Shown here: positions 3,111 to 62,493 of the stretch, piece by piece
Numbering within the stretch: position 1 is the first letter of the stretch
Layout: every line of letters begins with the position of its first letter
NCBI GenBank assembly: GCA_964469335.1
Contig: CAYXYK010000003.1
Span: 3,315 to 67,314, forward strand
Direction: 5' to 3'
DNA length: 64,000 bases
From: an uncultured Candidatus Saccharibacteria bacterium
GTDB lineage: Bacteria > Patescibacteriota > Minisyncoccia > Phycocordibacterales > UBA6899
Program-made: the position numbers and the translations under genes
Notes under the pieces: generated by a model
What the model was told of the DNA's origin: nothing
Databases searched by the model: none
Seen by the model: the letters and a program-made list of their open reading frames with translations, nothing else

Positions 3111-3131
3111 CCTGGCTTGGGTCCATCATCA

Positions 3132-3163
3132 CACTCGAACGAGCGATCGTTCGAGTGTTTTTT
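3132..3163 (+). terminator. rho-independent terminator
   Basis: Perfect 11-bp stem CACTCGAACGA / TCGTTCGAGTG with loop GCGA, followed by TTTTTT. It lies 22 nt after the stop at 3110. Confidence 0.7.
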
Positions 3164-3221
3164 ATTCCCGCGTTCTTTGGTTGTTCTTTTAAACAACGGA
3201 TTGGTTTATAATGGTTGCAGT

Positions 3222-5273
3222 ATGTCCGATTTACCGAACAGTGGAGACAAGATAACGTATTTCGCCGAGACCGATTATCGCTCGCGGCGGATCAAGTTTG
3301 GTATCCGAGACGAGGACCGAGCGCGCCACATGTATGTCATCGGTAAGACAGGCATGGGAAAATCGACACTCCTCGAGAATCTCGCTATCCAAGACATTCA
3401 GAACGGGGAAGGAATCTGCTTCATCGATCCGCACGGTGGTACCGCAGAGACACTCCTCTCGTATGTCCCCGAGCATCGTATCAAGGATGTGATCTATTTC
3501 GCACCGTTCGATCAGGAGTTCCCGGTCGGTCTCAATGTGATGGAGGACCTCGGTCGTGACAAACGCCCCCTGGTCGTCTCCGGACTCATGGGTGCGTTCA
3601 AGAAAGTGTGGGTGGACGCGTGGAGTGCACGCATGGAATATATCTTGAACAATGCAATGCTTGCACTCATGGAGACTCCCGGCTCGACGCTGCTCGGAGT
3701 GAATCGTATGTTCGCCGACAAGGATTATCGTGCGATGATCGTCGCCAATGTCACTGATCCGTCGGTGCGCGCATTCTGGGTGGATGAGTATGCAAAGTAC
3801 TCCGATAAATTCGCGACCGAAGCAACTGCCGCCATTCAGAACAAGGTCGGTCAATTCGCTGCAAACCCGCTGATCCGAAACATGGTCGGGCAACCGAAGT
3901 CGACATTCGATATCCGCAAGGTCATGGATGAGAAGAAGATCTTTATCGTCAATCTCTCTAAGGGACGCATGGGAGAAGGGAACGCAAATCTCGTCGGCTC
4001 GATGCTCATCACCAAGATCTACCTTGCTGCCATGAGTCGCGCGGACGTCGGACCCGAAGCAGTGAAGTCGCTCCCACCATTCTACCTCTATGTCGATGAG
4101 TTCCAGTCATTCGCAAATGAATCGTTCGCGGATATCCTCTCCGAGGCACGTAAATACAAACTTTCACTTACGATCGCGCATCAGTATATCGAGCAGATGT
4201 CGGACGAAGTCCGGGCCGCGGTGTTCGGCAACGTTGGTACGATGATCGCATTCCGTGTCGGTTCATATGATGCCGAAGTCCTGGAGAAAGAATTCGCTCC
4301 GGTGTTCATCTCGGAAGATATCGTCAATCTCGGATTCGCCCAGGTATATCTCAAGCTGATGATCAAGGGGATCGGCTCTCCGCCTTTTTCCGCAACAACC
4401 ATCAATAGGCCGAAGATGCCCGCAGTGACCTACGCGAATGAAGTGATCGCTGCATCACGGGCACAGTTTGCGCTTCCTCGTGAGCAAGTTGAAAATGATA
4501 TCAAGAAATGGCACGAGCCCGTTCCTCCACAGCCGCGTGACCCGAATGCTCCGCAGGTGCCTGAGACGCGCAAGTATGCTCCTGGTACAAGGCCGCCCCC
4601 GAGACCCGCTTCGGCACAGTACGTTGAAATGGGGAGAGAGCCCGCACGAGAGAACAGAGTGGATGCCGAACGGCCGTCGCTCCCGCGTCCGCCGAGCGAT
4701 CGAATATTGCCGCCCGCCAGCGCAGCTTATGCACCAAGACCCCAACCAAGACAGCCAGAAGTACATCAGCCGTTCAAGATGGAGTTCGCAGAGCTGGTGA
4801 AAAAAGACGTTCCTTCGCAAGAGGTGTCGGCTGCCCCGCCTTCAGTACTTCCAGTACAAGCTGAGCGACGTCATGCATCTCCTGAAGCGCCAGTGCGCGT
4901 ACATGGAGAGCGCTCCCCCGCAAAAGAGGGAAGCGCCCCGCTTTCGATGCTCAAAACCAATCCTAAAAAAGACAAGGGACCTTCAGAACAAAACCTTTCA
5001 TCACTCCGTGACGCACTTTCGGCGGTACTAGTACAAAAAGAGGAAAAGAAAGCCCCTGAGGTTACTGTGCCTACCCAAGCGACTCCGGCAGCCACACAAG
5101 CACAACGAGTCGTGCAGGCACCACCCTCGGAGGTAAAAACAGCGACGCCCACACAGTCACCATCAATGGCGCAGCCTCCACCGTCCCGTGCACCCTTGCT
5201 TGATTCGCCGTTCACTCCTCCGCCACCCACTGAGATCCCGGAAGATGTGCTCAAGAAGGTATTGGCGGATTGA
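3222..5273 (+). CDS. VirD4/TraD/TrwB-like (DUF87/HerA-like) P-loop ATPase with long C-terminal Pro/Ala/Gln-rich disordered tail
   Basis: Walker A VIGKTGMGKST. Walker B-like FYLYVDEFQSF. TIAHQYIEQM resembles the coupling-protein Q-motif. The last roughly 260 aa are low-complexity (PVPPQPRDPNAPQVPETRKYAPGTRPPPRPAS...). I chose the start at the ATG 3222 (MSDLPNSG) rather than 3117; TATAAT at 3207-3212 lies just upstream. Confidence 0.55.
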   Translation: MSDLPNSGDKITYFAETDYRSRRIKFGIRDEDRARHMYVIGKTGMGKSTLLENLAIQDIQNGEGICFIDPHGGTAETLLSYVPEHRIKDVIYFAPFDQEFPVGLNVMEDLGRDKRPLVVSGLMGAFKKVWVDAWSARMEYILNNAMLALMETPGSTLLGVNRMFADKDYRAMIVANVTDPSVRAFWVDEYAKYSDKFATEATAAIQNKVGQFAANPLIRNMVGQPKSTFDIRKVMDEKKIFIVNLSKGRMGEGNANLVGSMLITKIYLAAMSRADVGPEAVKSLPPFYLYVDEFQSFANESFADILSEARKYKLSLTIAHQYIEQMSDEVRAAVFGNVGTMIAFRVGSYDAEVLEKEFAPVFISEDIVNLGFAQVYLKLMIKGIGSPPFSATTINRPKMPAVTYANEVIAASRAQFALPREQVENDIKKWHEPVPPQPRDPNAPQVPETRKYAPGTRPPPRPASAQYVEMGREPARENRVDAERPSLPRPPSDRILPPASAAYAPRPQPRQPEVHQPFKMEFAELVKKDVPSQEVSAAPPSVLPVQAERRHASPEAPVRVHGERSPAKEGSAPLSMLKTNPKKDKGPSEQNLSSLRDALSAVLVQKEEKKAPEVTVPTQATPAATQAQRVVQAPPSEVKTATPTQSPSMAQPPPSRAPLLDSPFTPPPPTEIPEDVLKKVLAD

Positions 5274-5344: not shown

Positions 5345-6241
5345 ATGAAGGAACTCATGATGGCGTTTTCTATTACCGCGCTATTTTTTGCGCATTCTGC
5401 TTTTGCGGCAGTCGTCGTGAATGAGATCGCATGGATGGGAAGTGCCTCTTCAAGCGCGGATGAGTGGATCGAACTCCACAACGACAGTACGAACATGCAA
5501 GACCTGACCGGGTGGAAGATCACCGGCAAAGGTGGTGCAAATATCGCACTACTCTCCGGGAGTATTCCTCCGAACGGATATTTCCTGGTCGAGCGAAGTG
5601 ACGATGGCACCGTGCCGGAAGTCAAAGCAGATCTCGTTGTCTCATTCGGAAAGGGGATATCCAACGACGGCGAGACGCTGAAACTCGTCGACGGGGGAGG
5701 AAATACCGTCGACACTGTCATCGGGGGAAAGAACTGGAGCAAGATCGGCGGAGATAAAACATCGAAACAGACACCCCAACGTACCCCCTCCGGTTGGATC
5801 ACTGCCCCCGCCACACCGCGAGCTTCGAATAAGACACCTTCCGTCGCTAGTGAAATCGCCGCTCCGGTTACAAAAACAAGAGTCGCTCAACCTGTGAAAG
5901 TTGCAAACGCCGAGACGCTCAAAGAAGAGAATGTGTGGCCCGCAAAACCTGCTATCCCGCCGATAAGAGCAGTTGCGGAAGAGAAGAAGAGTGGAGGGAA
6001 TAACCAGATCATATCGACCAGTTCAGTCAGCGCGAATGTCCTCTGGCAGCGCGGGAAGAATGCAGATGCAGAGAAACGAGCATGGGCATGGATGATCGTC
6101 GCCGTACTCTTGGTCATCGCGGCATCGCTCATCATCATGCGGGCGAATGTCTATGAGCCGACTGAGGCTGACAAATACGCGATCATTGAGGACATCATCG
6201 AGGGGAAGGATGATGCCAATGACCGTCTCAGCGACTACTAG
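5345..6241 (+). CDS. secreted/membrane-anchored lamin-tail-domain (LTD) protein
   Basis: N-terminal signal peptide (AFSITALFFAHSAFA). The VVNEIAWMGS...DEWIELHN...GWKI motif block is typical of PF00932 LTD. There is a Thr/Pro/Ala-rich linker and a C-terminal TM helix (AWAWMIVAVLLVIAASLIIM). The true start may be ATG 5357/5360, which follows an AAGGAA Shine-Dalgarno. Confidence 0.65.
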   Translation: MKELMMAFSITALFFAHSAFAAVVVNEIAWMGSASSSADEWIELHNDSTNMQDLTGWKITGKGGANIALLSGSIPPNGYFLVERSDDGTVPEVKADLVVSFGKGISNDGETLKLVDGGGNTVDTVIGGKNWSKIGGDKTSKQTPQRTPSGWITAPATPRASNKTPSVASEIAAPVTKTRVAQPVKVANAETLKEENVWPAKPAIPPIRAVAEEKKSGGNNQIISTSSVSANVLWQRGKNADAEKRAWAWMIVAVLLVIAASLIIMRANVYEPTEADKYAIIEDIIEGKDDANDRLSDY

Positions 6242-17256: not shown

Positions 17257-18192
17257 ATGGAAAAAACAATAGGATTCATCGGGCAGGGTTGGATCGGGAA
17301 GAACCTCGCGGACAATTTCGAGCGACGTGGGTATAAGACCGTACGCTATGCCAAAGAGAAGCCGTATGACGCGAACCTCGAGAAACTCAAGAATGCAGAT
17401 ATCATCTTCATCGCGGTGCCGACCCCTACGACGCCGGAAGGATTCGACGACAGTATCCTACGTAGTGCGATCAAACTTGCGAAACCCGGACAAACAGTCG
17501 TCATCAAGTCAACGGTACTTCCTGGAACAACGGACAGCATCGCAGACGAGAATCCCGGGGTCTTCATCATGCATTCGCCTGAATTCTTGCGCGAGATGTC
17601 GGTGAAAAAAGATATCGAAAAGCCCGAGCGCAACATCATCGGGATCCCCACTCGATACAAAGATGATCCTGAGTGGAGAAAGCGTGCGGAAGAGGTACTC
17701 GCGGTGATACCGAACGCCCCATACGAAGTGATCTGCAGCGCACCTGAGGCTGAACTCACTAAATACGGCGGGAATAATTTCTTCTACGTGAAGGTGGTGT
17801 ATATGAACATGCTCTACGAACTCGCCCAGCACCACGGGGCATCCTGGGATGTGGTTGCGAAAAATATGGTCGCAGATTCGCGCATCGGCGCATCGCACAT
17901 GCAACCGGTCCATCAGATCGCGCATCTCGACAACGGTGTGCCCGGACGCGGGGCAGGTGGACACTGCTTCCTCAAGGATTTTGCCGCGTTACGATTCCAT
18001 TATGAAGAGAAGTTTCCCGATCACTCCCATATGCATTCACTTCTGCGCTCCTTCGAGGCGACGAATAATTATCTCCTCAAGTCGACCAACAAAGACAAAG
18101 AGCTCCTTCTTGGTGTGTATGGAGAGGATGTCCTTTGTGTCTGCAAGATCACCGATAAATCGAGTGTGTGCGTCTGTGGTGTGAATAAATAA
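17257..18192 (+). CDS. short UDP-glucose/GDP-mannose 6-dehydrogenase-family protein (paralog 1)
   Basis: IGFIGQGWIGKN NAD-binding N-terminus. GAGGHCFLKD matches the catalytic-Cys motif GGxCFxKD of the nucleotide-sugar dehydrogenase family. At only 311 aa it is shorter than canonical three-domain enzymes. Confidence 0.7.
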   Translation: MEKTIGFIGQGWIGKNLADNFERRGYKTVRYAKEKPYDANLEKLKNADIIFIAVPTPTTPEGFDDSILRSAIKLAKPGQTVVIKSTVLPGTTDSIADENPGVFIMHSPEFLREMSVKKDIEKPERNIIGIPTRYKDDPEWRKRAEEVLAVIPNAPYEVICSAPEAELTKYGGNNFFYVKVVYMNMLYELAQHHGASWDVVAKNMVADSRIGASHMQPVHQIAHLDNGVPGRGAGGHCFLKDFAALRFHYEEKFPDHSHMHSLLRSFEATNNYLLKSTNKDKELLLGVYGEDVLCVCKITDKSSVCVCGVNK

Positions 18193-18197
18193 TAGCT

Positions 18198-19049
18198 ATG
18201 GATACCAAAAGCATCACGATAGGCGTCATCGGGCAAGGATACGTCGGCAAGAATTATGCCGATAATTTCGAGGATAGGGGTTTTGTGGTGGTGCGGTACA
18301 GTCTCGACCTGGTGCATGCAGCGAATAAGTCGAAGATACCGCAAGCGGATCTCGTCATCATCGCCGTCCCGACTCCGACGAAGAACGGCGCGTTCGATGA
18401 TTCGCTCGTGCGTGACGCACTCAGCGGCCTTCGTAAGGGACAGATTGTGGTCATCAAGTCGACGATACAGAAGGGGACAACCGACAAGCTGCAACAAGAC
18501 CACATGCATCTTGTTCTCATGCATGTTCCGGAATTTTTACGCGAAGCGTACGCGCGTGAGGATGTCGATTTTCCTTCCCGTAACATCATCGGGCTCGGTG
18601 CCGACACTCCCGCGCATCATGAAGCGGCGAAACTTGTCGAAGAAATCTTCCCAAAGGCGAAGCACACCATGAAGGTCCCTGCGGTTGACGCGGAATTCAT
18701 CAAATACACTCATAACACGATGGGGGTGATGATGATCGTGTATACCAATCTTCTCTATGATCTTGCGCGCGAGCATGGGGTCGAATGGGAGTCGGTCAAA
18801 GACGCCATCCTGCATAACCCTTGGTTTCCCGAGAAATATCTTGACCCCATCCACAAGGATGGGCGCGGAGCGGGCGGCAGCTGTTTCATCAAAGACTTTG
18901 CCGCGCTTGTTGAATCGTATCAAGCACGACTACCGAATGACAAAGAGGGGATCGAACTCCTGCAGGCGATCGCAAAGAAGAATAATCGACTCTTGCGAGA
19001 CACAGGGAAAAGCATACCCATCCTCAACGAAGTCTACGGAGATGAGTAA
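18198..19049 (+). CDS. short UDP-sugar 6-dehydrogenase-family protein (paralog 2, tandem)
   Basis: IGVIGQGYVGKN and GAGGSCFIKD motifs. It is collinear with and clearly homologous to the upstream gene (both carry VVIKST...PEFLRE...NIIG). Confidence 0.7.
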   Translation: MDTKSITIGVIGQGYVGKNYADNFEDRGFVVVRYSLDLVHAANKSKIPQADLVIIAVPTPTKNGAFDDSLVRDALSGLRKGQIVVIKSTIQKGTTDKLQQDHMHLVLMHVPEFLREAYAREDVDFPSRNIIGLGADTPAHHEAAKLVEEIFPKAKHTMKVPAVDAEFIKYTHNTMGVMMIVYTNLLYDLAREHGVEWESVKDAILHNPWFPEKYLDPIHKDGRGAGGSCFIKDFAALVESYQARLPNDKEGIELLQAIAKKNNRLLRDTGKSIPILNEVYGDE

Positions 19050-44294: not shown

Positions 44295-45053
44295 ATGTAT
44301 AACGGGAAAAACCTCAAAATAGTCGCAACAATAGAGGCACGAATGACCTCTTCACGCCTTCCTGGGAAGGTGCTCCTTCCTATCGGGGGAGTTCCGGCAC
44401 TTGAGATGCTTGTCACAAGACTGAGACGGAGTAAGTACCTCGACGGCATCTGTGTCGCCACCACCGTGAACGAAGATGATGAGCCGATCGTGCAATTGAC
44501 GGAGAGACTTGGTGTCTCGAATTTCCGCGGGAGTGAGAGTGATGTACTCTCTCGGGTGCTCGGCGCTGCGCGGTCGATGTCTGCAGATATCATCGTCGAG
44601 ATCACCGGCGACTGCCCGTTCGTAGACCCTCTCCTGGTCGATCGCGCTGTCGAAGAGTTCTTTACGCACGAGGTCGATTATGCGTCGAATACCATCACTG
44701 CGACCTATGCCAACGGATTCGATGTGCAAGTGTTCCCGACAGCGATACTTGCTGAGGTGGACTCGCTGACACAGGACCCAGTTGATCGTACACATGTCTC
44801 ATACTATATCTATATGCATCCGGAGAAATATCGACTGCATAATTGGGTCGCGGATGCGGAAAGTCACGGCCCGGAACTCCGTATGACCCTCGATGAGGAT
44901 TCCGACTATCAAGCACTCCAGAGTGTCGCGGCAGCACTACTCCCCATTGATCCGAATTTCTCGGCGAAAGATGTGACGCAATATCTACGCGTACATCCAG
45001 AAGTGGTTGCACTGAATGCGAATGTGAGACAAAAAGAAGCAAATGAGCTATAA
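44295..45053 (+). CDS. SpsF-type (CTP_transf_3) cytidylyltransferase, paralog A
   Basis: KIVATIEARMTSSRLPGKVL matches the N-terminal signature of SpsF/acylneuraminate-cytidylyltransferase-family enzymes. Confidence 0.75.
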   Translation: MYNGKNLKIVATIEARMTSSRLPGKVLLPIGGVPALEMLVTRLRRSKYLDGICVATTVNEDDEPIVQLTERLGVSNFRGSESDVLSRVLGAARSMSADIIVEITGDCPFVDPLLVDRAVEEFFTHEVDYASNTITATYANGFDVQVFPTAILAEVDSLTQDPVDRTHVSYYIYMHPEKYRLHNWVADAESHGPELRMTLDEDSDYQALQSVAAALLPIDPNFSAKDVTQYLRVHPEVVALNANVRQKEANEL

Positions 45054-51172: not shown

Positions 51173-51223
51173 GTTGGTGTAAAGTGTTTGTCGAAAAATG
51201 CTGTCACGATCTAAACAAATCCA

Positions 51224-52168
51224 ATGGAAAGCGAAACAAGAAAAAAAATTGAAAAGTATCCGACGCTTTGTAAGACATTCTTATACATCGAAAAGAATTC
51301 TGTTTTTTATAAGAATATCTTTGAGGCAAGCGTAACTATTCCGATTGACTACAGTACCGCAGAGCGTATTTGCTCCGACGCACTTCTCATGTGTTCCGGA
51401 GACTGGGAGGAATACACCAAGAGATTAAGAAATCTTTTTGAAATCAATTACGAGTTTCTTCAGTTACAGGATTTTCTCGAAAAGAATCGAAGATACCTTT
51501 ATACTTCATTCAAGGAGGTCGAAGAGAATGTGTTCAAAAAAGAGCGCACGAGTGGACTAGAAGGAGTCGAGTACCTCTGGGGAGTTTACTTCACAAACGT
51601 TTTTTGGGTGACACACCATCTGGCATTCATGTTCTTTATCGAGGAATTTGCGCGAAAATCACCCCTAAATGGAGTATGTCTTGAAGCGCCCACCGGGTCA
51701 GGAATCTTCCTTTCAAATTTTCTTGATGAACGTCCTCTGTGGAATGCTGAGAGCGTTGATATCAGCGAAACATCCAAGAGCTTTGCTACGAATCTTCACA
51801 ACATAAAACACACATCAGAACATGTCCGATTGTTGAATCAAGACATCTATAAATACACCAGCGATAAAAAATTCGACCGCATCATCAGTATGGAGTTCAT
51901 CGAGCACGTCGAAGATCCTGTTTCAATACTGAAAATATTGAAAAATTTACTTGCAGATGATGGTAAAATCTTCCTCACTACCGTTGCGTGGGCTGCGTTC
52001 ATAGATCATATCTATCTATACAAAAGTGCCGATGAGATCAGGGCTCATATTGCTGAAAGCGGGCTTCGTATCGAAAAGGAGTTGGTACAGAATATTTTCC
52101 CTAAGGATAAGGGGCGAACAGAAAACCGCGAAGTCGCGCTGAACTACTCTGCGATTCTTGTAAAATAA
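51224..52168 (+). CDS. class I SAM-dependent methyltransferase (C-terminal MT domain)
   Basis: VCLEAPTGSGIF motif I and FDRIISMEFIEHVEDP...DGKIFLTT. It is the first gene of the low-GC (about 40%) segment. Confidence 0.6.
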   Translation: MESETRKKIEKYPTLCKTFLYIEKNSVFYKNIFEASVTIPIDYSTAERICSDALLMCSGDWEEYTKRLRNLFEINYEFLQLQDFLEKNRRYLYTSFKEVEENVFKKERTSGLEGVEYLWGVYFTNVFWVTHHLAFMFFIEEFARKSPLNGVCLEAPTGSGIFLSNFLDERPLWNAESVDISETSKSFATNLHNIKHTSEHVRLLNQDIYKYTSDKKFDRIISMEFIEHVEDPVSILKILKNLLADDGKIFLTTVAWAAFIDHIYLYKSADEIRAHIAESGLRIEKELVQNIFPKDKGRTENREVALNYSAILVK

Positions 52169-52181
52169 TTCGATTGTAATT

Positions 52182-52958
52182 ATGACAAAAGAGTTGGTGG
52201 ACCTAAAAAGTGCCTATACAGCAGCGGGACTTGTAAAAGGAGATACTGTTTTTATTCATGCTAATCTCCTCTCATTCGGACTGGTGAGTCATGGCAAAAA
52301 AGGATTCGTTGAGTATTTCCTCTCACCACTTCTCGATATCATCGGCGATACGGGAACAATCGCCGTGCTTACATATACGTTTAGTTATGCACCTGGAAAA
52401 ATACCTTTCGTATATGAGACGAGTCCATCAGAGGCAGGGATGTTCACTGAACATATTCGCAATATGGCTGGTGCAATCAGGTCGTTTCACCCGCTCTGTT
52501 CAGTCGTTGCATTTGGTCCTCAAGCTGCAGCAATCGCTGACGTAAGCACTCGTTCGGCATTTGGATGGGGGTCTCCTTTCCATGTGCTACATCAACTAAA
52601 GGCAAAATGTCTGTATATCGGAATGACGGCGGGGCAGTCGTGCACATTCCTTCATTATGTCGAGCAAATGTATGGCGTTTCCCACTGCTACAACAAAGCA
52701 TTTTTCCATCCTGCGTACAGAGATGGTCAACTGGTCGAAGGTCCGTTTCTAGTCTATCTAAGAAACCGCAAGTCAGATGAGTATGACTTTTCTTCGTTCG
52801 AAAAAGAGATGAAAAAAAGGGGTCATATTTCAGAACAAAAGCATCGTGGAGGAATGATACAAACAATGAACTTCACGGACGTGTTCGCTGTAGGAATGGA
52901 AATGCTTCAGAACGATACGTGTGCATTTTTAAAGTCACCTTTTTATGTCACAGAATGA
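52182..52958 (+). CDS. AAC(3)-family (Antibiotic_NAT, PF02522) N-acyltransferase
   Basis: GDTVFIHANLLSFG...GDTGTIAVLTYT matches the conserved N-terminal blocks of aminoglycoside-3-N-acetyltransferase-like enzymes. Confidence 0.65.
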   Translation: MTKELVDLKSAYTAAGLVKGDTVFIHANLLSFGLVSHGKKGFVEYFLSPLLDIIGDTGTIAVLTYTFSYAPGKIPFVYETSPSEAGMFTEHIRNMAGAIRSFHPLCSVVAFGPQAAAIADVSTRSAFGWGSPFHVLHQLKAKCLYIGMTAGQSCTFLHYVEQMYGVSHCYNKAFFHPAYRDGQLVEGPFLVYLRNRKSDEYDFSSFEKEMKKRGHISEQKHRGGMIQTMNFTDVFAVGMEMLQNDTCAFLKSPFYVTE

Positions 52959-52977
52959 AGTAGATATGACACAAAAC

Positions 52978-53328
52978 ATGAACATAGATGGCGTGGGGAT
53001 CGATATCGTAGAAGTATCTCGATTCGAAGAGTTGATTGGGAAAGAAGAGCCACATCTTATCTCAAAACTGTTCACACCCCATGAACAAGAGTACTGTTTT
53101 TCCTTCAAAAATCCGGCGGTTCATTTCGCGGGGACATTCGCTGCAAAGGAGGCTGCGCACAAAGCCTGTGGGGATCGTTCTGTTGCACTCGAATCAATAG
53201 AAGTGCGTAGACTCGAAACAGGGAAGCCCGAAATCTGGATCAAGGGAAGCCGCTCGAATTCATTACTCGTCTCGATATCACATACAGATGATACTGCCTG
53301 TGCGATATCATACTTTCGTTCCATATGA
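52978..53328 (+). CDS. acpS: holo-ACP synthase (4'-phosphopantetheinyl transferase, AcpS-type)
   Basis: MNIDGVGIDIVEVSRF...FTPHEQEYC...KEAAHKA layout is typical of AcpS. The start is either 52966 or 52978. Confidence 0.7.
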   Translation: MNIDGVGIDIVEVSRFEELIGKEEPHLISKLFTPHEQEYCFSFKNPAVHFAGTFAAKEAAHKACGDRSVALESIEVRRLETGKPEIWIKGSRSNSLLVSISHTDDTACAISYFRSI

Positions 53329-54362
53329 AAAAATGTATTGTTCTTGATCTTGATAATACCCTCTGGGGAGGTGTCGTCGGAGAAGACGGCGTAAACGGTG
53401 TTGCGCTCTCACTTTCTGGCCCGGGCGCTGACTTTGTCGCCTTTCAGCAAGCTCTCCTCGATCTGTACAATCGGGGCATCATTCTTGCAATTAACAGCGC
53501 AAATAATCCAAATGATGCGCTTTCTGTCATTCGGAATAACCCAAACATGATTCTGAAGGAACAACATTTTGCCGCAATGCGTATCAACTGGGATGATAAA
53601 GTCTCAAACATAAAAGACATAGCAAAAGAGCTGAACATCGGTCTTGACTCCATGGTATTCCTCGATGATAGCGCAATTAACCGTGAGGCGATGAGAAGTT
53701 TTCTCCCCAAAGTTGAGACTCCTGAATTGCCAATCGACCCAAAAGAATATACGACTTTTCTCCTCGGACTTCCGTATTTTGTGACGAACGCCGTTACTGA
53801 CGAGGATAAAATGAGAGGGAGCATGTATGTGACCGAAAGGCTTCGTCTGGAGACAGAGAAGTCATTTGCGAATAGAGCGGACTTTTTGAAGAGCCTAGAT
53901 ATAAAAGTGAAGATATTCAATGATCCGGGCATCGCTTTGAGTCGGCTTGCTCAAATGACCGAAAAAACCAATCAATTCAATACCAATAAGATGCCCATGA
54001 ATGAAGACGAAGTTCGCGAATTCGCCGAAGACGCCCAGAAGGAAGTATTCTATGCTTCTGCCTCCGATCGATTCGGCGACCATGGTATCATTGCATTAGC
54101 GTTCATCAGTAAAGATATGAGCAATTGGCAAATCGATCCGATGCTGATGAGCTGTAGGGTGATCGGGCGCGGGATCGAAGATGCGTTTCTGTGGGGAATC
54201 GCCAAGGAGGCGAAGAAACAAGGAGCAGAAACAATCTCGGCAAATTTTGTCCAAAGTGAGAAGAATTTGCCGGCGAGAACATTCATTGAGCGCTGTTTTG
54301 GTGAAAAACGAAAAACGGAAGTTATCAATATTACTAAGCCTGATTGGATCACAATCATATGA
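53325..54362 (+). CDS. FkbH-like HAD-superfamily (subfamily IIIC) protein
   Basis: CIVLDLDNTLWGGVVGEDG is the FkbH/HAD-IIIC signature. In polyketide pathways FkbH-like enzymes load a glycolytic 3-carbon unit onto an ACP. Confidence 0.75.
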   Translation: MKKCIVLDLDNTLWGGVVGEDGVNGVALSLSGPGADFVAFQQALLDLYNRGIILAINSANNPNDALSVIRNNPNMILKEQHFAAMRINWDDKVSNIKDIAKELNIGLDSMVFLDDSAINREAMRSFLPKVETPELPIDPKEYTTFLLGLPYFVTNAVTDEDKMRGSMYVTERLRLETEKSFANRADFLKSLDIKVKIFNDPGIALSRLAQMTEKTNQFNTNKMPMNEDEVREFAEDAQKEVFYASASDRFGDHGIIALAFISKDMSNWQIDPMLMSCRVIGRGIEDAFLWGIAKEAKKQGAETISANFVQSEKNLPARTFIERCFGEKRKTEVINITKPDWITII

Positions 54363-54583
54363 AAACATTCAACAAGATAGTCTCAGAGCATTTTACTCTT
54401 GCAGAGAACGAAGTGACCGATGCACTCACTATGCATGATATACCAGGATGGGATTCAATGAATTTCCTACTTCTTATCGCGGACATTGAGAAAGAATTCG
54501 GTATGACGTTCACAATGGATGAAGTGCTCTCGTTCAATTCACTTGGCGATATTAGGAAGGTTCTCGAAGCGAAGGGGAAGTAA
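54359..54583 (+). CDS. acyl carrier protein
   Basis: About 75 aa with the GWDSMNFLLL motif (DSx, the phosphopantetheine-attachment serine). The start overlaps the upstream stop (ATGA). Confidence 0.75.
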   Translation: MKTFNKIVSEHFTLAENEVTDALTMHDIPGWDSMNFLLLIADIEKEFGMTFTMDEVLSFNSLGDIRKVLEAKGK

Positions 54584-54584
54584 C

Positions 54585-55013
54585 ATGAGTGATGTCATCC
54601 CCAAAGATAAGTCTATCCATGAGCTTAATCTTGGTGATTCGGTTTCTTTCGAGAAGATAATTACCGACGAAGACGTTTCTGTTTTCTCGAAATTGAGTGG
54701 AGACTTCAACCCCCTCCATACAGATGCTTCATACGCAGAGTTAACTCCCTTCAGAGAAAGGGTGGTTTTTGGGATGTTGCTCGGGGCATATGTCTCGCGA
54801 CTGATCGGGATGGAACTTCCAGGCACTCGTGCACTCATTTTGAAAGAATCACTTGAATTCAAAAAACCTGTGCATATTGGAGATACGATCACTGTTACTG
54901 GGAAGATCGTTTCGAAGAGTGAGTCAGTCGGACTCATTGAAGTGGGAGTATCGATTACTGTCAAAGGTGAGATAACCACTCAGGGCTCAGTTCATGTTCG
55001 AGTAAGATCATAA
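54585..55013 (+). CDS. MaoC-like (hot-dog fold) dehydratase
   Basis: SGDFNPLHTD is the MaoC dehydratase signature. GGGGAAG Shine-Dalgarno lies before the ATG. Confidence 0.75.
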   Translation: MSDVIPKDKSIHELNLGDSVSFEKIITDEDVSVFSKLSGDFNPLHTDASYAELTPFRERVVFGMLLGAYVSRLIGMELPGTRALILKESLEFKKPVHIGDTITVTGKIVSKSESVGLIEVGVSITVKGEITTQGSVHVRVRS

Positions 55014-55016
55014 CCC

Positions 55017-55733
55017 ATGACAGAAAACAACAATAAACCTCTTTTAATCATCTCTGGCGGAACCGGTTATCTGGGTAGCATTATATCCTCACGATTTATT
55101 GAACATGGCTGGAAAGTTGCAACTCTCGGACGTACCCCAACCGCTGATTCCGCTTTGTCGTACTTATGTGATGTTACCGATGAAGAGAGCATAAAAAGTA
55201 CCATCCAGCAGATCGCAGAAACACATGGACGAATTGATGCATGCATTCATGCCGCGACGCTGCCCGTTGACGCAAAGACACCACTGCTTTCCTCCTCGGT
55301 CGAATCATTCGACGCGCAGGTCGCAGTTGCAGCACGTGGAGCATTCTTGTTGGCAAAGAGCGTGGTCCCTCTCATGGCTCATGACTCTGCGTTTATCGGA
55401 GTCACTTCTGCGCTCATCGAACCAAATGTAGTTTTGTCTCCAACGGGAGCTTATATATCTGCAAAGTATGCATTGCGCGGGTTTCTCCGGTCACTTGCAG
55501 CAGAGGTGGCAAGTAAGGGGGTGCGTGTTTACGCTGTCGCTCCGGGTTTTCTTCCCGGAGGGCTGAATAAGGGTCTTCCTGATGCAATAATCAAGTTTCT
55601 AGGCAAAAAAAGTGGTGCAGGGGACTCAACCCCTGAAGATGTTGCTGACGTCGTTTTAAAGATATGTACTGAACCAGCATTCTACGCATCGGGCTCTTCG
55701 ATTTCCATACCAGGCGGGATTTCTCCTCTCTAG
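55017..55733 (+). CDS. SDR-family oxidoreductase (3-oxoacyl-ACP reductase-like)
   Basis: LLIISGGTGYLGSII cofactor motif and YISAKYALRGF (YxxxK). Confidence 0.75.
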   Translation: MTENNNKPLLIISGGTGYLGSIISSRFIEHGWKVATLGRTPTADSALSYLCDVTDEESIKSTIQQIAETHGRIDACIHAATLPVDAKTPLLSSSVESFDAQVAVAARGAFLLAKSVVPLMAHDSAFIGVTSALIEPNVVLSPTGAYISAKYALRGFLRSLAAEVASKGVRVYAVAPGFLPGGLNKGLPDAIIKFLGKKSGAGDSTPEDVADVVLKICTEPAFYASGSSISIPGGISPL

Positions 55734-55928
55734 AATTTCCAAAAAACGAAGCGGGTTAAGTATATTAACCTTAGTGGGGGCACTTTTGGTTGGTAATTTC
55801 TTGAAACTATTCTTCATATAATTCTCATTAAAATCAGAGATAATTTTGTTATACACTTAATTTCTCACTCTTGTGGGTAATAGGTGAGGTCGATTAATGA
55901 GTTTCTCATTAGTAATTACCTTAATAAA

Positions 55929-57299
55929 ATGAAAAAAATAATAATTGGGTTTCTAAGTTTTTTGTTCATAATGTTACTTTCCCCAGTTCATGTTTTTGCA
56001 GCTATTACTTCTGACACCGGCGCAGCGTACACTGCATGTGTTAGTGGAACAACGTGTTCCTATTCGTATACAGTGGGAGCAATAACGGACCCTCTGCTTG
56101 TGTGCAGTAATAGCAACTTCAATGACGCTGATCCCGGTGCTGTGACCATGACCTATGGTGGCGTGAGCATGACACAAATTGGATCCAACCAATCCAAAAC
56201 AAGTGTCCCTGGGACATCCTATATGCAGACCTTCTACCTTGCGGGGGCAGCAACAGGAACACATACGCTTGCTATCACCACTACGAATTCTCAGAGCAAC
56301 GGTTTTTATGCACACTGTGTCTCTTACGGCGGAGTCAATCAAAGCACACCAATTGAAGCATACACTCAGCAGGTTGATGTGAATGTGGCAGTGAACACTG
56401 ATATTCCTGCTACTGTCACTACTCTTACAGATGGTGCATGGGTGGGGATGATGGCAACAGATGTCTATGCTCGCACTGTCGTAGCTGGAGCCAGTACGAC
56501 CAAAATCACAGGCTGCTCAGATGCGCAGGCCGACTGTTTTGACACAAATGGACCTGTTAGCCCGGCAGGGAATAGAACACTCAATGTGAAATACACAAAT
56601 GGCACCCTTGACTCCTTCATAATCACGGCGTACGCGATCAAGCCAGTGGAAGTTTATCGTGACACCGGCGCAGCGTACACTGCATGTGTTAGTGGAACAA
56701 CGTGTTCCTATTCGTATACAGTGGGAGCAATAACGGACCCTCTGCTTGTGTGCAGTAATAGCAACTTCAATGACGCTGATCCCGGTGCTGTGACCATGAC
56801 CTATGGTGGCGTGAGCATGACACAAATTGGATCCAACCAATCCAAAACAAGTGTCCCTGGGACATCCTATATGCAGACCTTCTACCTTGCGGGGGCAGCA
56901 ACAGGAACACATACGCTTGCTATCACCACTACGAATTCTCAGAGCAACGGTTTTTATGCACACTGTGTCTCTTACGGCGGAGTCAATCAAAGCACACCAA
57001 TTGAAGCATACACTCAGCAGGTTGATGTGAATGTGGCAGTGAACACTGATATTCCTGCTACTGTCACTACTCTTACAGATGGTGCATGGGTGGGGATGAT
57101 GGCAACAGATGTCTATGCTCGCACTGTCGTAGCTGGAGCCAGTACGACCAAAATCACAGGCTGCTCAGATGCGCAGGCCGACTGTTTTGACACAAATGGA
57201 CCTGTTAGCCCGGCAGGGAATAGAACACTCAATGTGAAATACACAAATGGCACCCTTGACTCCTTCATAATCACGGCGTACGCGATCAAGCCAGCCTAG
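55929..57299 (+). CDS. secreted protein composed of two identical 216-aa tandem modules
   Basis: Signal peptide MKKIIIGFLSFLFIMLLSPVHVFA. The module DTGAAYTACVSGTTCSY...ITAYAIKP occurs twice, rich in Thr/Ser/Gly/Cys. There is an AT-rich promoter region upstream. Confidence 0.7.
   Translation: MKKIIIGFLSFLFIMLLSPVHVFAAITSDTGAAYTACVSGTTCSYSYTVGAITDPLLVCSNSNFNDADPGAVTMTYGGVSMTQIGSNQSKTSVPGTSYMQTFYLAGAATGTHTLAITTTNSQSNGFYAHCVSYGGVNQSTPIEAYTQQVDVNVAVNTDIPATVTTLTDGAWVGMMATDVYARTVVAGASTTKITGCSDAQADCFDTNGPVSPAGNRTLNVKYTNGTLDSFIITAYAIKPVEVYRDTGAAYTACVSGTTCSYSYTVGAITDPLLVCSNSNFNDADPGAVTMTYGGVSMTQIGSNQSKTSVPGTSYMQTFYLAGAATGTHTLAITTTNSQSNGFYAHCVSYGGVNQSTPIEAYTQQVDVNVAVNTDIPATVTTLTDGAWVGMMATDVYARTVVAGASTTKITGCSDAQADCFDTNGPVSPAGNRTLNVKYTNGTLDSFIITAYAIKPA
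56013..57294. repeat. perfect tandem direct repeat, 2 x about 634 bp at 648-bp period, inside the CDS
   Basis: 56013-56646 is identical to 56661-57294. Both + and - strand spurious ORFs recur with identical translations at a 648-bp offset (56179 vs 56827; 55974 vs about 56622). Confidence 0.9.
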
Positions 57300-57321
57300 C
57301 CTTGGAGTTTTATTGGCAAAA

Positions 57322-57351
57322 AAGAATGCCCCATCGAGGGCATTCTTTTCG
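57322..57351 (+). terminator. rho-independent terminator (bidirectional-looking)
   Basis: AGAATGCCC-catcga-GGGCATTCT is a 9-bp stem, flanked by AAAAAA upstream and TTTTC downstream. Confidence 0.7.
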
Positions 57352-57443
57352 CTACGTTTCGCTAATTGCGGAAGTTATGAGTATGTGTAGAATAGAGTGG
57401 ATGTAGTTTTATTTAATCAAACTCACTTAGTGAAAGGACAGAT

Positions 57444-58511
57444 ATGACAACGCGCTTCTCCAAAACATTCAAAGTCGGCGACCGACTCGTCGGCGAGGGC
57501 CAGCCGGCACTCGTCATTGCTGACCTCGGCGGTAATTTCGACGGAAGTATCGAAAAGGCAAAGAAATTGGCAAAGCAGGTGAAGGATGCAGGCGGCGATG
57601 TGGTGAAGATCCAGAGTTTCCTCGCTGACAAGATCGTTTCCGGAAAAGGCTTCGCTTCGATGAAGCTCAAGGGCGTGCACGGCAGCTGGGGAAAGCCTGT
57701 CGAAGAAGTGTTCAAGTCAGCTGAGTTCCCACGCGAGTGGCACAAGGAGTTCTTCGATTACTGTAAGGAGATAGGCATTCTCGCCACTTCGAGTCCGTAT
57801 GATTATGAAGCAGTAGATATTTTGGACGAGGCAGGTGTGCCGTTCTACAAGATCGGTTCCGGTGACATCACCTGGCTCGAGATGATCGAGTACATCGCAA
57901 AGAAAGGGAAGCCCGTCGTCCTCGCGACCGGCGCAGCGACCCTTTCAGAAGTCGATGAGGCGCTCAAGGTGATCGAGTCGACCGGCAACAAGGAGATCGC
58001 ACTTCTTCAGTGCATCACCAACTATCCGTCCAAGGTCGAGAGCGCGAACATCAAAGTAATGGATACCTACAAGACTGCCTTCGACATCATGGTAGGGTAC
58101 TCTGATCACACCTACTCTGACACTGTCGTACTTGGTGCGGTCGCTCGCGGAGCAAAGGTGATCGAGAAACATTTCACCGACAGCAAGAAGAACGCAGGCC
58201 CTGATCATCCCCACTCGATGGAACCGCAGCAGTTCGCCGATATGATGGTACGTATCCGTGACATGGAGGCCGCTCTTGGATCGAGCAGGAAAGAGGTCGT
58301 CGCAGAAGAATCGGAGACTGTCGTCGTCCAGCGCCGCTCCCTCTATGCGTCGGCGGATATCAAGAAAGGCGAGAAGGTCGGTGTCGAGCGTATCATCGAG
58401 CTTCGTCCTGCGCTCGGGATATATCCGAAATATAAGAAGCAGGTAGGAGGACTCACCGCGGCGAAGGATATTAAGAAAGGGGAGGCTATCTACTGGGACT
58501 CCTTAGCATAA
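57444..58511 (+). CDS. NeuB-family nonulosonic-acid synthase (sialic/pseudaminic/legionaminic acid synthase-like)
   Basis: N-terminal TIM-barrel block LVIADLGGNFDGSIEKAKKLAKQVKDAGGDVVKIQSF. The C-terminal SAF domain is ...RRSLYASADIKKGEKV. AAAGGA Shine-Dalgarno precedes the ATG. Confidence 0.85.
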   Translation: MTTRFSKTFKVGDRLVGEGQPALVIADLGGNFDGSIEKAKKLAKQVKDAGGDVVKIQSFLADKIVSGKGFASMKLKGVHGSWGKPVEEVFKSAEFPREWHKEFFDYCKEIGILATSSPYDYEAVDILDEAGVPFYKIGSGDITWLEMIEYIAKKGKPVVLATGAATLSEVDEALKVIESTGNKEIALLQCITNYPSKVESANIKVMDTYKTAFDIMVGYSDHTYSDTVVLGAVARGAKVIEKHFTDSKKNAGPDHPHSMEPQQFADMMVRIRDMEAALGSSRKEVVAEESETVVVQRRSLYASADIKKGEKVGVERIIELRPALGIYPKYKKQVGGLTAAKDIKKGEAIYWDSLA

Positions 58512-61731: not shown

Positions 61732-62493
61732 ATGACAAAAGTTGTTGCGATCATTCAAGCTCGGCTCGGCTCCACACGACTCCCTGGAAAGGTGCTCATG
61801 GAAGTGGAAGGGAAGACAGTCCTCGAACGTGTGGTCGAGCGTACCCGCCATGCAAAGAAAATAGACAGTGTCGTGGTCACGATGCCGACATCAGAACGTG
61901 ACGATACGCTCGCGAAATTCTGTGAAGAGAAAGGGATACCGTTCTACCGCGGGAAAGAAGAAGATCTGCTCGGGCAGTATGTTGCTGCAGCAGAAAAGGA
62001 ACATGCGACCCATATCGTGCGCATCACCGCCGATTGCCCGCTGATCGACCCTGAGATCATCGATCAGGCGATCGAGAGATTCTTCTCCGGTGAACTCGAC
62101 TATCTTTCGACCGGGCGTTTGGTGACAACATACCCTGATGGACTAGACACCGAAGTGTTCACTAAAGCTGCGTTGCTTCGTGCCGCGGATGAGGCGAAAC
62201 TCCCGAGTGAGCATGAACATGTCACTCCGTACATATGGAATCACCCCGAACTCTTCCGCATCGCTACGCTCGAATATGAGCGTGACCTTTCGACATTACG
62301 ATGGACCGTCGATGAACCGCGCGACCTCGAGTTCGTGCGTGCGGTCTATCACGAACTCGCCGGTAGGGACGTGTTCCCAATGAACGACGTTCTGGGCGTA
62401 CTCACCAAGAAACCTGAGCTCGGGAATATCAATTCGGATATCACACGGAATTCCGGATACTACAAATCATTGCGCGAAGAGAGAGGTGCGTAG
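61732..62493 (+). CDS. SpsF-type (CTP_transf_3) cytidylyltransferase, paralog B
   Basis: KVVAIIQARLGSTRLPGKVL N-terminal signature. It is collinear with the gene at 44295. Confidence 0.75.
   Translation: MTKVVAIIQARLGSTRLPGKVLMEVEGKTVLERVVERTRHAKKIDSVVVTMPTSERDDTLAKFCEEKGIPFYRGKEEDLLGQYVAAAEKEHATHIVRITADCPLIDPEIIDQAIERFFSGELDYLSTGRLVTTYPDGLDTEVFTKAALLRAADEAKLPSEHEHVTPYIWNHPELFRIATLEYERDLSTLRWTVDEPRDLEFVRAVYHELAGRDVFPMNDVLGVLTKKPELGNINSDITRNSGYYKSLREERGA

Follow-up and report, generated by a model that had tools for sequence, protein, structure and literature searches.

The DNA analysed here, hereafter the window, is a stretch of 64,000 nucleotides from an uncultured Candidatus Saccharibacteria bacterium (assembly GCA_964469335.1, contig CAYXYK010000003.1, positions 3,315 to 67,314), and the subject of this report is a gene at 55929-57299 on its + strand that carries a long perfect repeat. 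We consider it reasonably probable that this gene arose by a real in-frame tandem duplication of a complete module, and that its product is a Sec-secreted protein, with no anchor detected, that acts as a bivalent extracellular binding protein, probably for a glycan. The product would consist of two identical all-beta modules of ~211 residues on a 5-residue linker, which together make up the whole mature protein. It would bind extracellularly, probably to a glycan; this reading draws on the analogy to phage receptor-binding modules and on the gene's place in a pseudaminic-acid-type surface-glycan locus. The doubled module would double valency and hence avidity. By that analogy, a bivalent extracellular binding protein is the most likely identity of the product. 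As an event, the duplication looks real but ordinary, and the family in which it occurred is uncurated and without a solved structure.

The duplicated gene and its product

Positions 56012-56646 and 56660-57294 are identical over 635 of 635 nt, with 0 mismatches, and start 648 bp (216 codons) apart; a perfect match of 635 bp by chance is excluded. The initial annotation had described a perfect repeat with a 648-bp period, which stands, but had given it as 634 bp from 56013, whereas it extends over 635 bp from 56012. Tandem Repeats Finder (TRF), run on the window, did not report the repeat; the longest period that it covers is 500 bp, below 648. Both copies lie within one + strand open reading frame (ORF) of 456 aa, from the ATG at 55929 to the TAG at 57299, and the encoded protein reads, in order, signal peptide MKKIIIGFLSFLFIMLLSPVHVFA, AITS, module 1, linker VEVYR, module 2, a final A and the stop. 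The ORF and repeat coordinates thus bear out the earlier description of an in-frame duplication that places two identical modules behind a signal peptide, and the identical spurious ORFs noted at a 648-bp offset on both strands are present in the ORF list of the window. The features of the gene are as follows.

55734-55928, + strand: AT-rich intergenic leader of 195 bp (GC content 0.40 over 55600-56199)
55929-57299, + strand: ORF for signal peptide and two identical modules, 456 aa (stop TAG at 57297-57299; identical protein P0007)
55929-56000, + strand: predicted Sec signal peptide MKKIIIGFLSFLFIMLLSPVHVFA, from sequence features, with putative cleavage after VFA
56012-56646, + strand: repeat copy 1, the body of module 1 (211 aa), identical to copy 2
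56647-56659, + strand: unique 13-bp junction TGGAAGTTTATCG, encoding the linker VEVYR together with flanking bases
56660-57294, + strand: repeat copy 2, the body of module 2 (211 aa), identical to copy 1
57320-57349, + strand: terminator-like hairpin with a 12-bp perfect stem (AAAAGAAUGCCC/GGGCAUUCUUUU), ~20 nt past the stop

The N-terminus has the character of a Sec signal peptide, with a KK n-region, a 17-residue hydrophobic core (mean Kyte-Doolittle value 2.6), a VFA cleavage-type motif and no lipobox Cys, and its assignment as such is made from sequence. Module 1 follows the signal peptide directly, with nothing between them, and the protein ends (...AYAIKPA*) straight after module 2, lacking both an LPXTG motif and a hydrophobic tail; Pfam gave no other domain in the 456 aa. 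The mature protein is rich in Thr (16.5%), Ser (8.6%) and Cys (2.8%), with six Cys per module.

In the leader, a promoter scan gave one weak sigma-70-like + strand match (55903-55930, 9/12), which does not rise above shuffled sequence. The RNA fold of 57296-57365, which spans the hairpin, has a predicted energy of -22.1 kcal/mol (z = -2.8); the consensus terminator scan missed the hairpin because its T run sits inside the stem. With its own leader and its own terminator, the duplicated gene therefore looks like a separate transcription unit. No paralogue of the module was found elsewhere in the window.

Copy number and origin of the duplication

The identical 456-aa protein (P0007) is encoded on 11 contigs of the Joint Genome Institute (JGI) and a single-residue variant on one more, from 12 JGI samples (33000453xx) that were assembled separately. 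A 442-aa version, called from an internal Met, lies on an NCBI contig of 260,761 bp, and a 226-aa version with a single module on one Logan contig. Ten JGI loci were fetched (L002-L011, with two near-identical places not among them), and in all 10 the junction occurs exactly once; where they overlap the window, their identity to it is 99.95-100%. One of them (L002, sample 3300045372) has A56757G in copy 2 alone, which changes Asn to Asp.

These assemblies establish that there are at least two copies, though they do not prove that there are exactly two. Filler of 13 bp that is unique and preserves the frame is not something that an assembler can invent, so there must be reads that run from the end of one unit to the start of the next. 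The initial annotation had allowed for an assembly artefact, and the two halves of that proposal fared differently: a single copy falsely doubled is unlikely, given a unique in-frame junction in the 12 JGI samples and the NCBI record, whereas a copy number above two is possible.

That the genome holds one module, with the second copy and the junction made by the assembler, we regard as very improbable. Zero divergence between the copies would fit such an error, as would a 992-bp Logan contig of SRR31616030 (L001), in which the 5' flank, a single unit and the 3' flank follow one another, all 100% identical to the window. Set against this are the junction itself, unique in the window, in frame and found in the 10 fetched loci (of 12 samples) as well as in the NCBI record, and the existence of relatives with the same kind of near-identical tandem modules. 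The Logan contig is short and both of its ends lie in unique sequence, which points to low coverage; at low coverage it could have lost the 43 junction k-mers, an outcome estimated to be fairly improbable. We lean towards a true single-copy allele, either ancestral or derived by recombination between the repeats, rather than a low-coverage graph without junction k-mers. The tally of two copies in 12 JGI assemblies and one in the Logan contig is subject to limits of short-read assembly that cut both ways.

The opposite error, in which at least three identical modules exist in the genome and what the assemblies represent is a minimal traversal of the loop, is in our view unlikely, if less so than an outright artefact. 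The 635-bp perfect repeat is longer than short-read k-mers and most insert sizes, and three-copy relatives exist (P0013 and P0024); the gene of P0013 begins 89 bp into its contig, whose edge may have cut off the array. Yet the junction occurs exactly once in 10/10 fetched loci, though all may share one assembler behaviour, and a collection of 15 billion proteins contains no protein with more than two modules at >=90% identity, the cluster comprising only the 226-, 442- and 456-aa forms.

The junction also bears on how the duplication arose. It lies in the wider context ATCAAGCCAGTGGAAGTTTATCGTGACACC, and no second copy of TGGAAGTTTATCG that could have served as a template was found in the window. 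It matches the 13 bp before copy 1 at 4/13 positions and the 13 bp after copy 2 likewise at 4/13, whereas 57303-57315 (TGGAGTTTTATTG), 8 bp past the end of copy 2, matches at 10/13, and the likeness ends exactly at the 13-bp limits. Shuffled junctions reached 10/13 in 1.5% of trials within 30 bp of the gene and in 9% within 400 bp. A simple one-step tandem duplication does not fit, because such an event leaves no foreign bases. An origin in two steps from the 3' flank has moderate support from these comparisons: illegitimate or unequal recombination would have duplicated a 656-bp unit that took in 21 bp of 3' flank as well as the stop codon, loss of 8 bp (CCTAGCCT, with the TAG in it) would then have joined the two frames, and three substitutions would have turned VEFYC into VEVYR. 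If this is right, the linker acquired changes and the 1,270 bp of repeat acquired none, which would argue for selection on the linker, homogenised units, or both.

The identity of the 635-bp copies could accordingly reflect either a recent event or homogenisation by recombination or gene conversion, and the same recombination would let the copy number move among one, two and more. Recombination between direct repeats of 635 bp should yield variants with one, two and three copies at appreciable rates. The choice offered initially, between a very recent duplication and an artefact, left out a third option to which the origin of the junction and a relative discussed below both speak, namely an older duplication kept identical by gene conversion. 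Under such concerted evolution, the module bodies would be held identical while the segment of the first strand and linker escaped, and zero divergence would give no date; we rate this as possible, though on the unlikely side. It would account for the five residues ahead of the first shared Asp, which differ fully between the copies (AITSD in copy 1, VEVYRD in copy 2) even though both segments occupy the first-strand position of the family (I/V-x-F/Y/W-D), and for the three substitutions in a junction of 3'-flank origin against none in 1,270 bp of repeat. A precedent is offered by L017 (8001-10058, encoding the three-module P0024 in an ENA assembly whose contig name, contig_2295, may point to a long-read assembler), where copies 2 and 3 have the same DNA sequence throughout the 675-nt period and copy 1 differs from them only in its first 135 nt (~60% identity), being identical for the following 540 nt; this sharp boundary suggests gene conversion, as judged from the alignment. 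On the other hand, the 10/13 match of the junction to 57303-57315 suits a recent two-step origin about equally well, no diverged two-module orthologue nearer than P0003 is known, and a one-copy form of this strain may also exist.

Duplication of this module is not peculiar to the window. Domain calling with hidden Markov models and pairwise alignment identified 15 distinct multi-module proteins among the 150 best matches (18 rows in all, three being versions of the window's own protein), with identities between modules of 25, 32, 33, 34, 37, 40, 40, 44, 47, 63, 80, 83, 90, 96-99 and 98-100%; P0024 and P0013 have three modules each. These sequence comparisons show module duplication recurring in the family at every stage of divergence, and for that reason the duplication in the window is more likely to be real. 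In this recurrent process of birth and divergence, the window gene represents the youngest stage, or else the most homogenised one.

Module family and possible role of the protein

The initial annotation had proposed an AlphaFold prediction of the module, and this gave a confident all-beta model: AlphaFold 2 (AF2), supplied with an alignment of six sequences, predicted 15 strands and no helix, with a predicted local distance difference test score (pLDDT) of 86.7 and a predicted TM-score (pTM) of 0.86. The two-module model scored lower (pLDDT 78.9, pTM 0.66); each module is predicted to fold as an independent beta domain, and the linker is predicted as part of a beta strand.

An exhaustive HMMER search placed the module in a family of at least 632 clusters, with 632 representatives (50% identity) at E<=1e-3, of which 50 reach E<=1e-10; most members are single-module proteins of 205-250 aa. 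Searches of Pfam, NCBIfam and PHROGs gave no significant family for the window module (0 PHROGs matches at E<=0.01), and a profile search of PDB sequences with the module returned nothing at E<=1. Three names can be set aside. Asp/Glu racemase (PF01177) stayed below its cutoff of 31 bits (score 27.3, no stretch passing), and Inhibitor_I42 gave a faint match under its cutoff; both are contradicted by the all-beta model. The JGI name 'alpha/beta hydrolase' is wrong, being contradicted by the same helix-free model. Foldseek found no credible solved relative in the PDB: its best match, the PRD1 P3 coat protein, had a query TM-score (TMq) of 0.32 and a root-mean-square deviation (rmsd) of 14, which is too poor for us to claim a jelly-roll capsid relationship.

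Against BFVD, in which both sides of the comparison are predicted models, Foldseek returned 78 matches at E<=1e-3. The top matches (probability 1.0, TMq 0.72-0.78, rmsd 3.3-4.0 over ~220 columns) are proteins of uncultured Caudovirales, and many models of Mycobacterium and Gordonia phage proteins annotated as 'minor tail protein' follow at TMq 0.49-0.73. These model comparisons show a fold relationship to phage minor tail proteins. Sequence links run through the family: the distant relatives P0035, P0047, P0058 and P0026 match phrog_2106, 553 and 382, all named 'minor tail protein', at 4e-6 to 2e-11. Relatives of P0047 are encoded in 46 IMG/VR viral loci; a tblastn search of GenBank phages with P0047 gave no match. 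At one further locus (L021), a 569-aa protein has the module as its N-terminus and matches 'tail protein and host specificity' at its C-terminus; its gene adjoins tail-fibre and endolysin genes. The module thus belongs to a large uncurated family, another branch of which is encoded in the block of tail and host-recognition genes that tailed phages carry. The branch of the window module itself is Cys-containing, with signal peptides, and its fusion partners include fn3, Ig_Rha78A_N and, in P0011, an SpvB/FG-GAP/RHS protein.

The likeness to phage minor tail protein modules (PHROG 2106, 553 and 382) extends from the predicted fold (TMq up to 0.78, probability 1.0) to family members that link the two by sequence and to a modular organisation, with units present in multiple copies and fused to other domains. 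In contrast to those modules, the window gene has a Sec signal peptide and lies in a cellular locus for glycan biosynthesis, not close to any phage genes: its neighbours are ACP, MaoC, SDR, NeuB and DUF218 genes and not a phage tail or host-recognition block.

Multivalent carbohydrate-binding modules and lectin repeats occur in secreted, glycan-active proteins and are built from all-beta, sandwich-like domains, and their tandem duplication raises avidity. The window protein shares with them all-beta modules in tandem, and the partners of its relatives (fn3, Ig_Rha78A_N, BACON-like, RHS/SpvB) are typical of extracellular, glycan-facing proteins; it differs in that its module matches no carbohydrate-binding or lectin family by sequence or structure in Pfam or the PDB.

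A third comparison is with the Periscope Proteins and similar cases (Rib/alpha C, SasG, Sgo0707 SHIRT), surface proteins with DNA-identical tandem domain repeats whose copy number is expected to change by recombination, driven by the high DNA identity (Whelan et al. 2021, PMC8201768). Common to these and the window protein is secretion from a bacterium and the tandem arrangement of DNA-identical copies (635/635 nt here) of a whole folded domain; the window gene may also have a polymorphism of one versus two copies. The window protein differs in several ways: it has only two copies, it lacks a wall or membrane anchor at its C-terminus and, because the repeated module is the entire mature protein, it has no ligand-binding head of its own at the N-terminus; its module of ~211 aa is larger than typical stalk domains.

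The initial annotation had raised the possibility of a surface or S-layer-like protein of phase-variable or expandable length, and of a target of glycosylation. The evidence supports neither phase variation nor an S-layer-like nature: the protein has only two copies and lacks an anchor, an SLH domain or any other surface-layer signature. A target of glycosylation would make the protein a surface-layer or sheath subunit whose Ser and Thr residues are decorated by an acylated pseudaminic-acid-like sugar, the product of the genes around it, with the duplication doubling the acceptor sites, and we find it doubtful. The mature protein is secreted and 25% Ser+Thr, its gene sits between an FkbH/ACP/MaoC/SDR cassette and a NeuB-like synthase, and the two-module homologue P0003 is likewise encoded in a glycan locus. 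Yet the predicted fold is compact and places the Thr and Ser residues in beta strands, not in a disordered linker, and the genes next to it include no identified protein glycosyltransferase of Maf type or of another dedicated kind. Searches of Pfam and NCBIfam gave no similarity to flagellin, pilin, SLH or known S-layer proteins, and hence none to a known acceptor class among nonulosonic-acid-glycosylated surface proteins (flagellin, pilin, S-layer). The gene also has its own leader and terminator, as described above, and its GC content at third codon positions (GC3, 0.45) is near that of the acyl cassette (0.42-0.48) and well under that of the NeuB-like gene (0.67). Homology points instead to a module of the phage host-recognition type, probably a binding one, rather than to a glycosylation target.

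For a bivalent binding protein secreted by the cell, a more specific role can be sketched, which we hold to be quite improbable in all its particulars: the cell would have taken over a phage receptor-binding module and would secrete it as a self-encoded bivalent lectin for the acylated pseudaminic-acid-type glycan of the same locus, with the copy number tuned by recombination between the DNA-identical units, as would happen repeatedly across the family. Such a lectin might, for example, coat or cross-link the cell's own surface, attach it to partner cells, or serve as a decoy that masks a phage receptor.

Several points weigh against the bivalent, glycan-binding product of a real duplication that we favour. 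The 12 JGI samples form one sample series and represent essentially one strain, so that they are not biologically independent; exactly two copies is unproven because short-read assemblers cross a perfect 635-bp loop the minimal number of times; the single-nucleotide polymorphism in copy 2 of L002 could be strain variation threaded through that loop; and the Logan contig shows one unit between flanks identical to those of the window. The junction is at odds with a simple one-step duplication. On the side of function, the window module had no tblastn match in GenBank phage genomes and no relative in IMG/VR, and since it also lacks a PHROG match, the phage link is transitive and structural. Binding by family members is putative, and the family has no solved structure. 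Finally, glycan loci account for two of the six cellular-type contexts examined, the four other relatives lying outside such genes.

If the duplication and the polymorphism of one versus two copies are both true, the gene is a clean natural case of whole-domain duplication at zero divergence, and since the family also displays later stages, from 98% down to 25% identity between modules, it offers a useful series for the birth and divergence of multi-domain extracellular proteins. A large module family without a Pfam, NCBIfam or PDB representative, which ties phage host-recognition proteins to secreted proteins of uncultured bacteria, merits curation and a structure. For annotators, the case is a warning that copy number cannot be trusted here from short reads and that the JGI hydrolase label is mistaken.

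The surrounding surface-glycan region

The window is one long surface-glycan region. It encodes GT4 glycosyltransferases, epimerases, dehydratases, a radical-SAM enzyme, methyltransferases, a flippase and a capsule-synthesis-like protein, together with a PseB equivalog over its cutoff (437.9 bits against 407.75), DegT/PseC-like aminotransferases, two CMP-ulosonic-acid cytidylyltransferases and ManC. No tRNA or Rfam family was matched in the window. Directly upstream of the duplicated gene lies a cassette for an AAC(3)-like N-acyltransferase, a phosphopantetheinyl transferase (PPTase), an FkbH domain, an acyl carrier protein (ACP), MaoC and a short-chain dehydrogenase/reductase (SDR), and downstream of it lies the following gene:

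57444-58511: NeuB/PseI-like synthase

Profile matches of these neighbours agree with the initial placement of the gene between an acyl-carrier cassette and a NeuB-like synthase. For the homologue P0003, which has two modules, the setting is likewise one of sugar-nucleotide and glycosyltransferase genes, and ~5.5 kb from it, in the same glycan locus (L013, 8021-8404), there is a gene of the bAvd / 23S_rRNA_IVP family, which includes an accessory protein of diversity-generating retroelements.

The duplicated gene lies within a lower-GC block at 51200-57400 (GC content 0.40-0.49, against 0.50-0.54 on either side; GC3 0.42-0.48, against 0.62-0.67 in PseB and NeuB), which contains a methyltransferase gene and those for the AAC(3)-like N-acyltransferase, PPTase, FkbH-domain protein, ACP, MaoC and SDR. 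This block may be a horizontally acquired cassette inserted in a nonulosonic-acid locus. Within it, at 52182-55733, the genes for the FkbH-domain protein (TIGR01686, 296 bits), ACP, MaoC dehydratase, SDR, PPTase and AAC(3)-family acyltransferase stand beside PseB, PseC-like and NeuB-like genes, which suggests an unusual ACP-delivered N-acyl decoration (glycerate-derived or hydroxyacyl) of a pseudaminic-acid-type sugar. The cytidylyltransferase genes are separate from one another (44295-45053 and 61732-62493) and suggest that two activated ulosonic or nonulosonic sugars are made.

Three JGI contigs of the same strain leave the window abruptly inside or after the NeuB-like gene, at window-equivalent positions 58313 (L005), 59155 (L006) and 58082 (L008), the last of these continuing past its break with 55 bp from 57745-57799. 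The breaks, which fall a short way downstream of the duplicated gene, reflect either structural variation among strains or contig ends that are chimeric. Where the glycan region begins, genes for a HerA/VirD4/TraG-like ATPase (3117-5273) and a Lamin-Tail-Domain protein (5345-6241) are out of character with their biosynthetic neighbours. Two adjacent genes similar to UDP-glucose/GDP-mannose dehydrogenases (17257-18192 and 18198-19049; 311 and 283 aa) form a tandem pair of paralogues, and both of these short products match the profiles only from about position 71.

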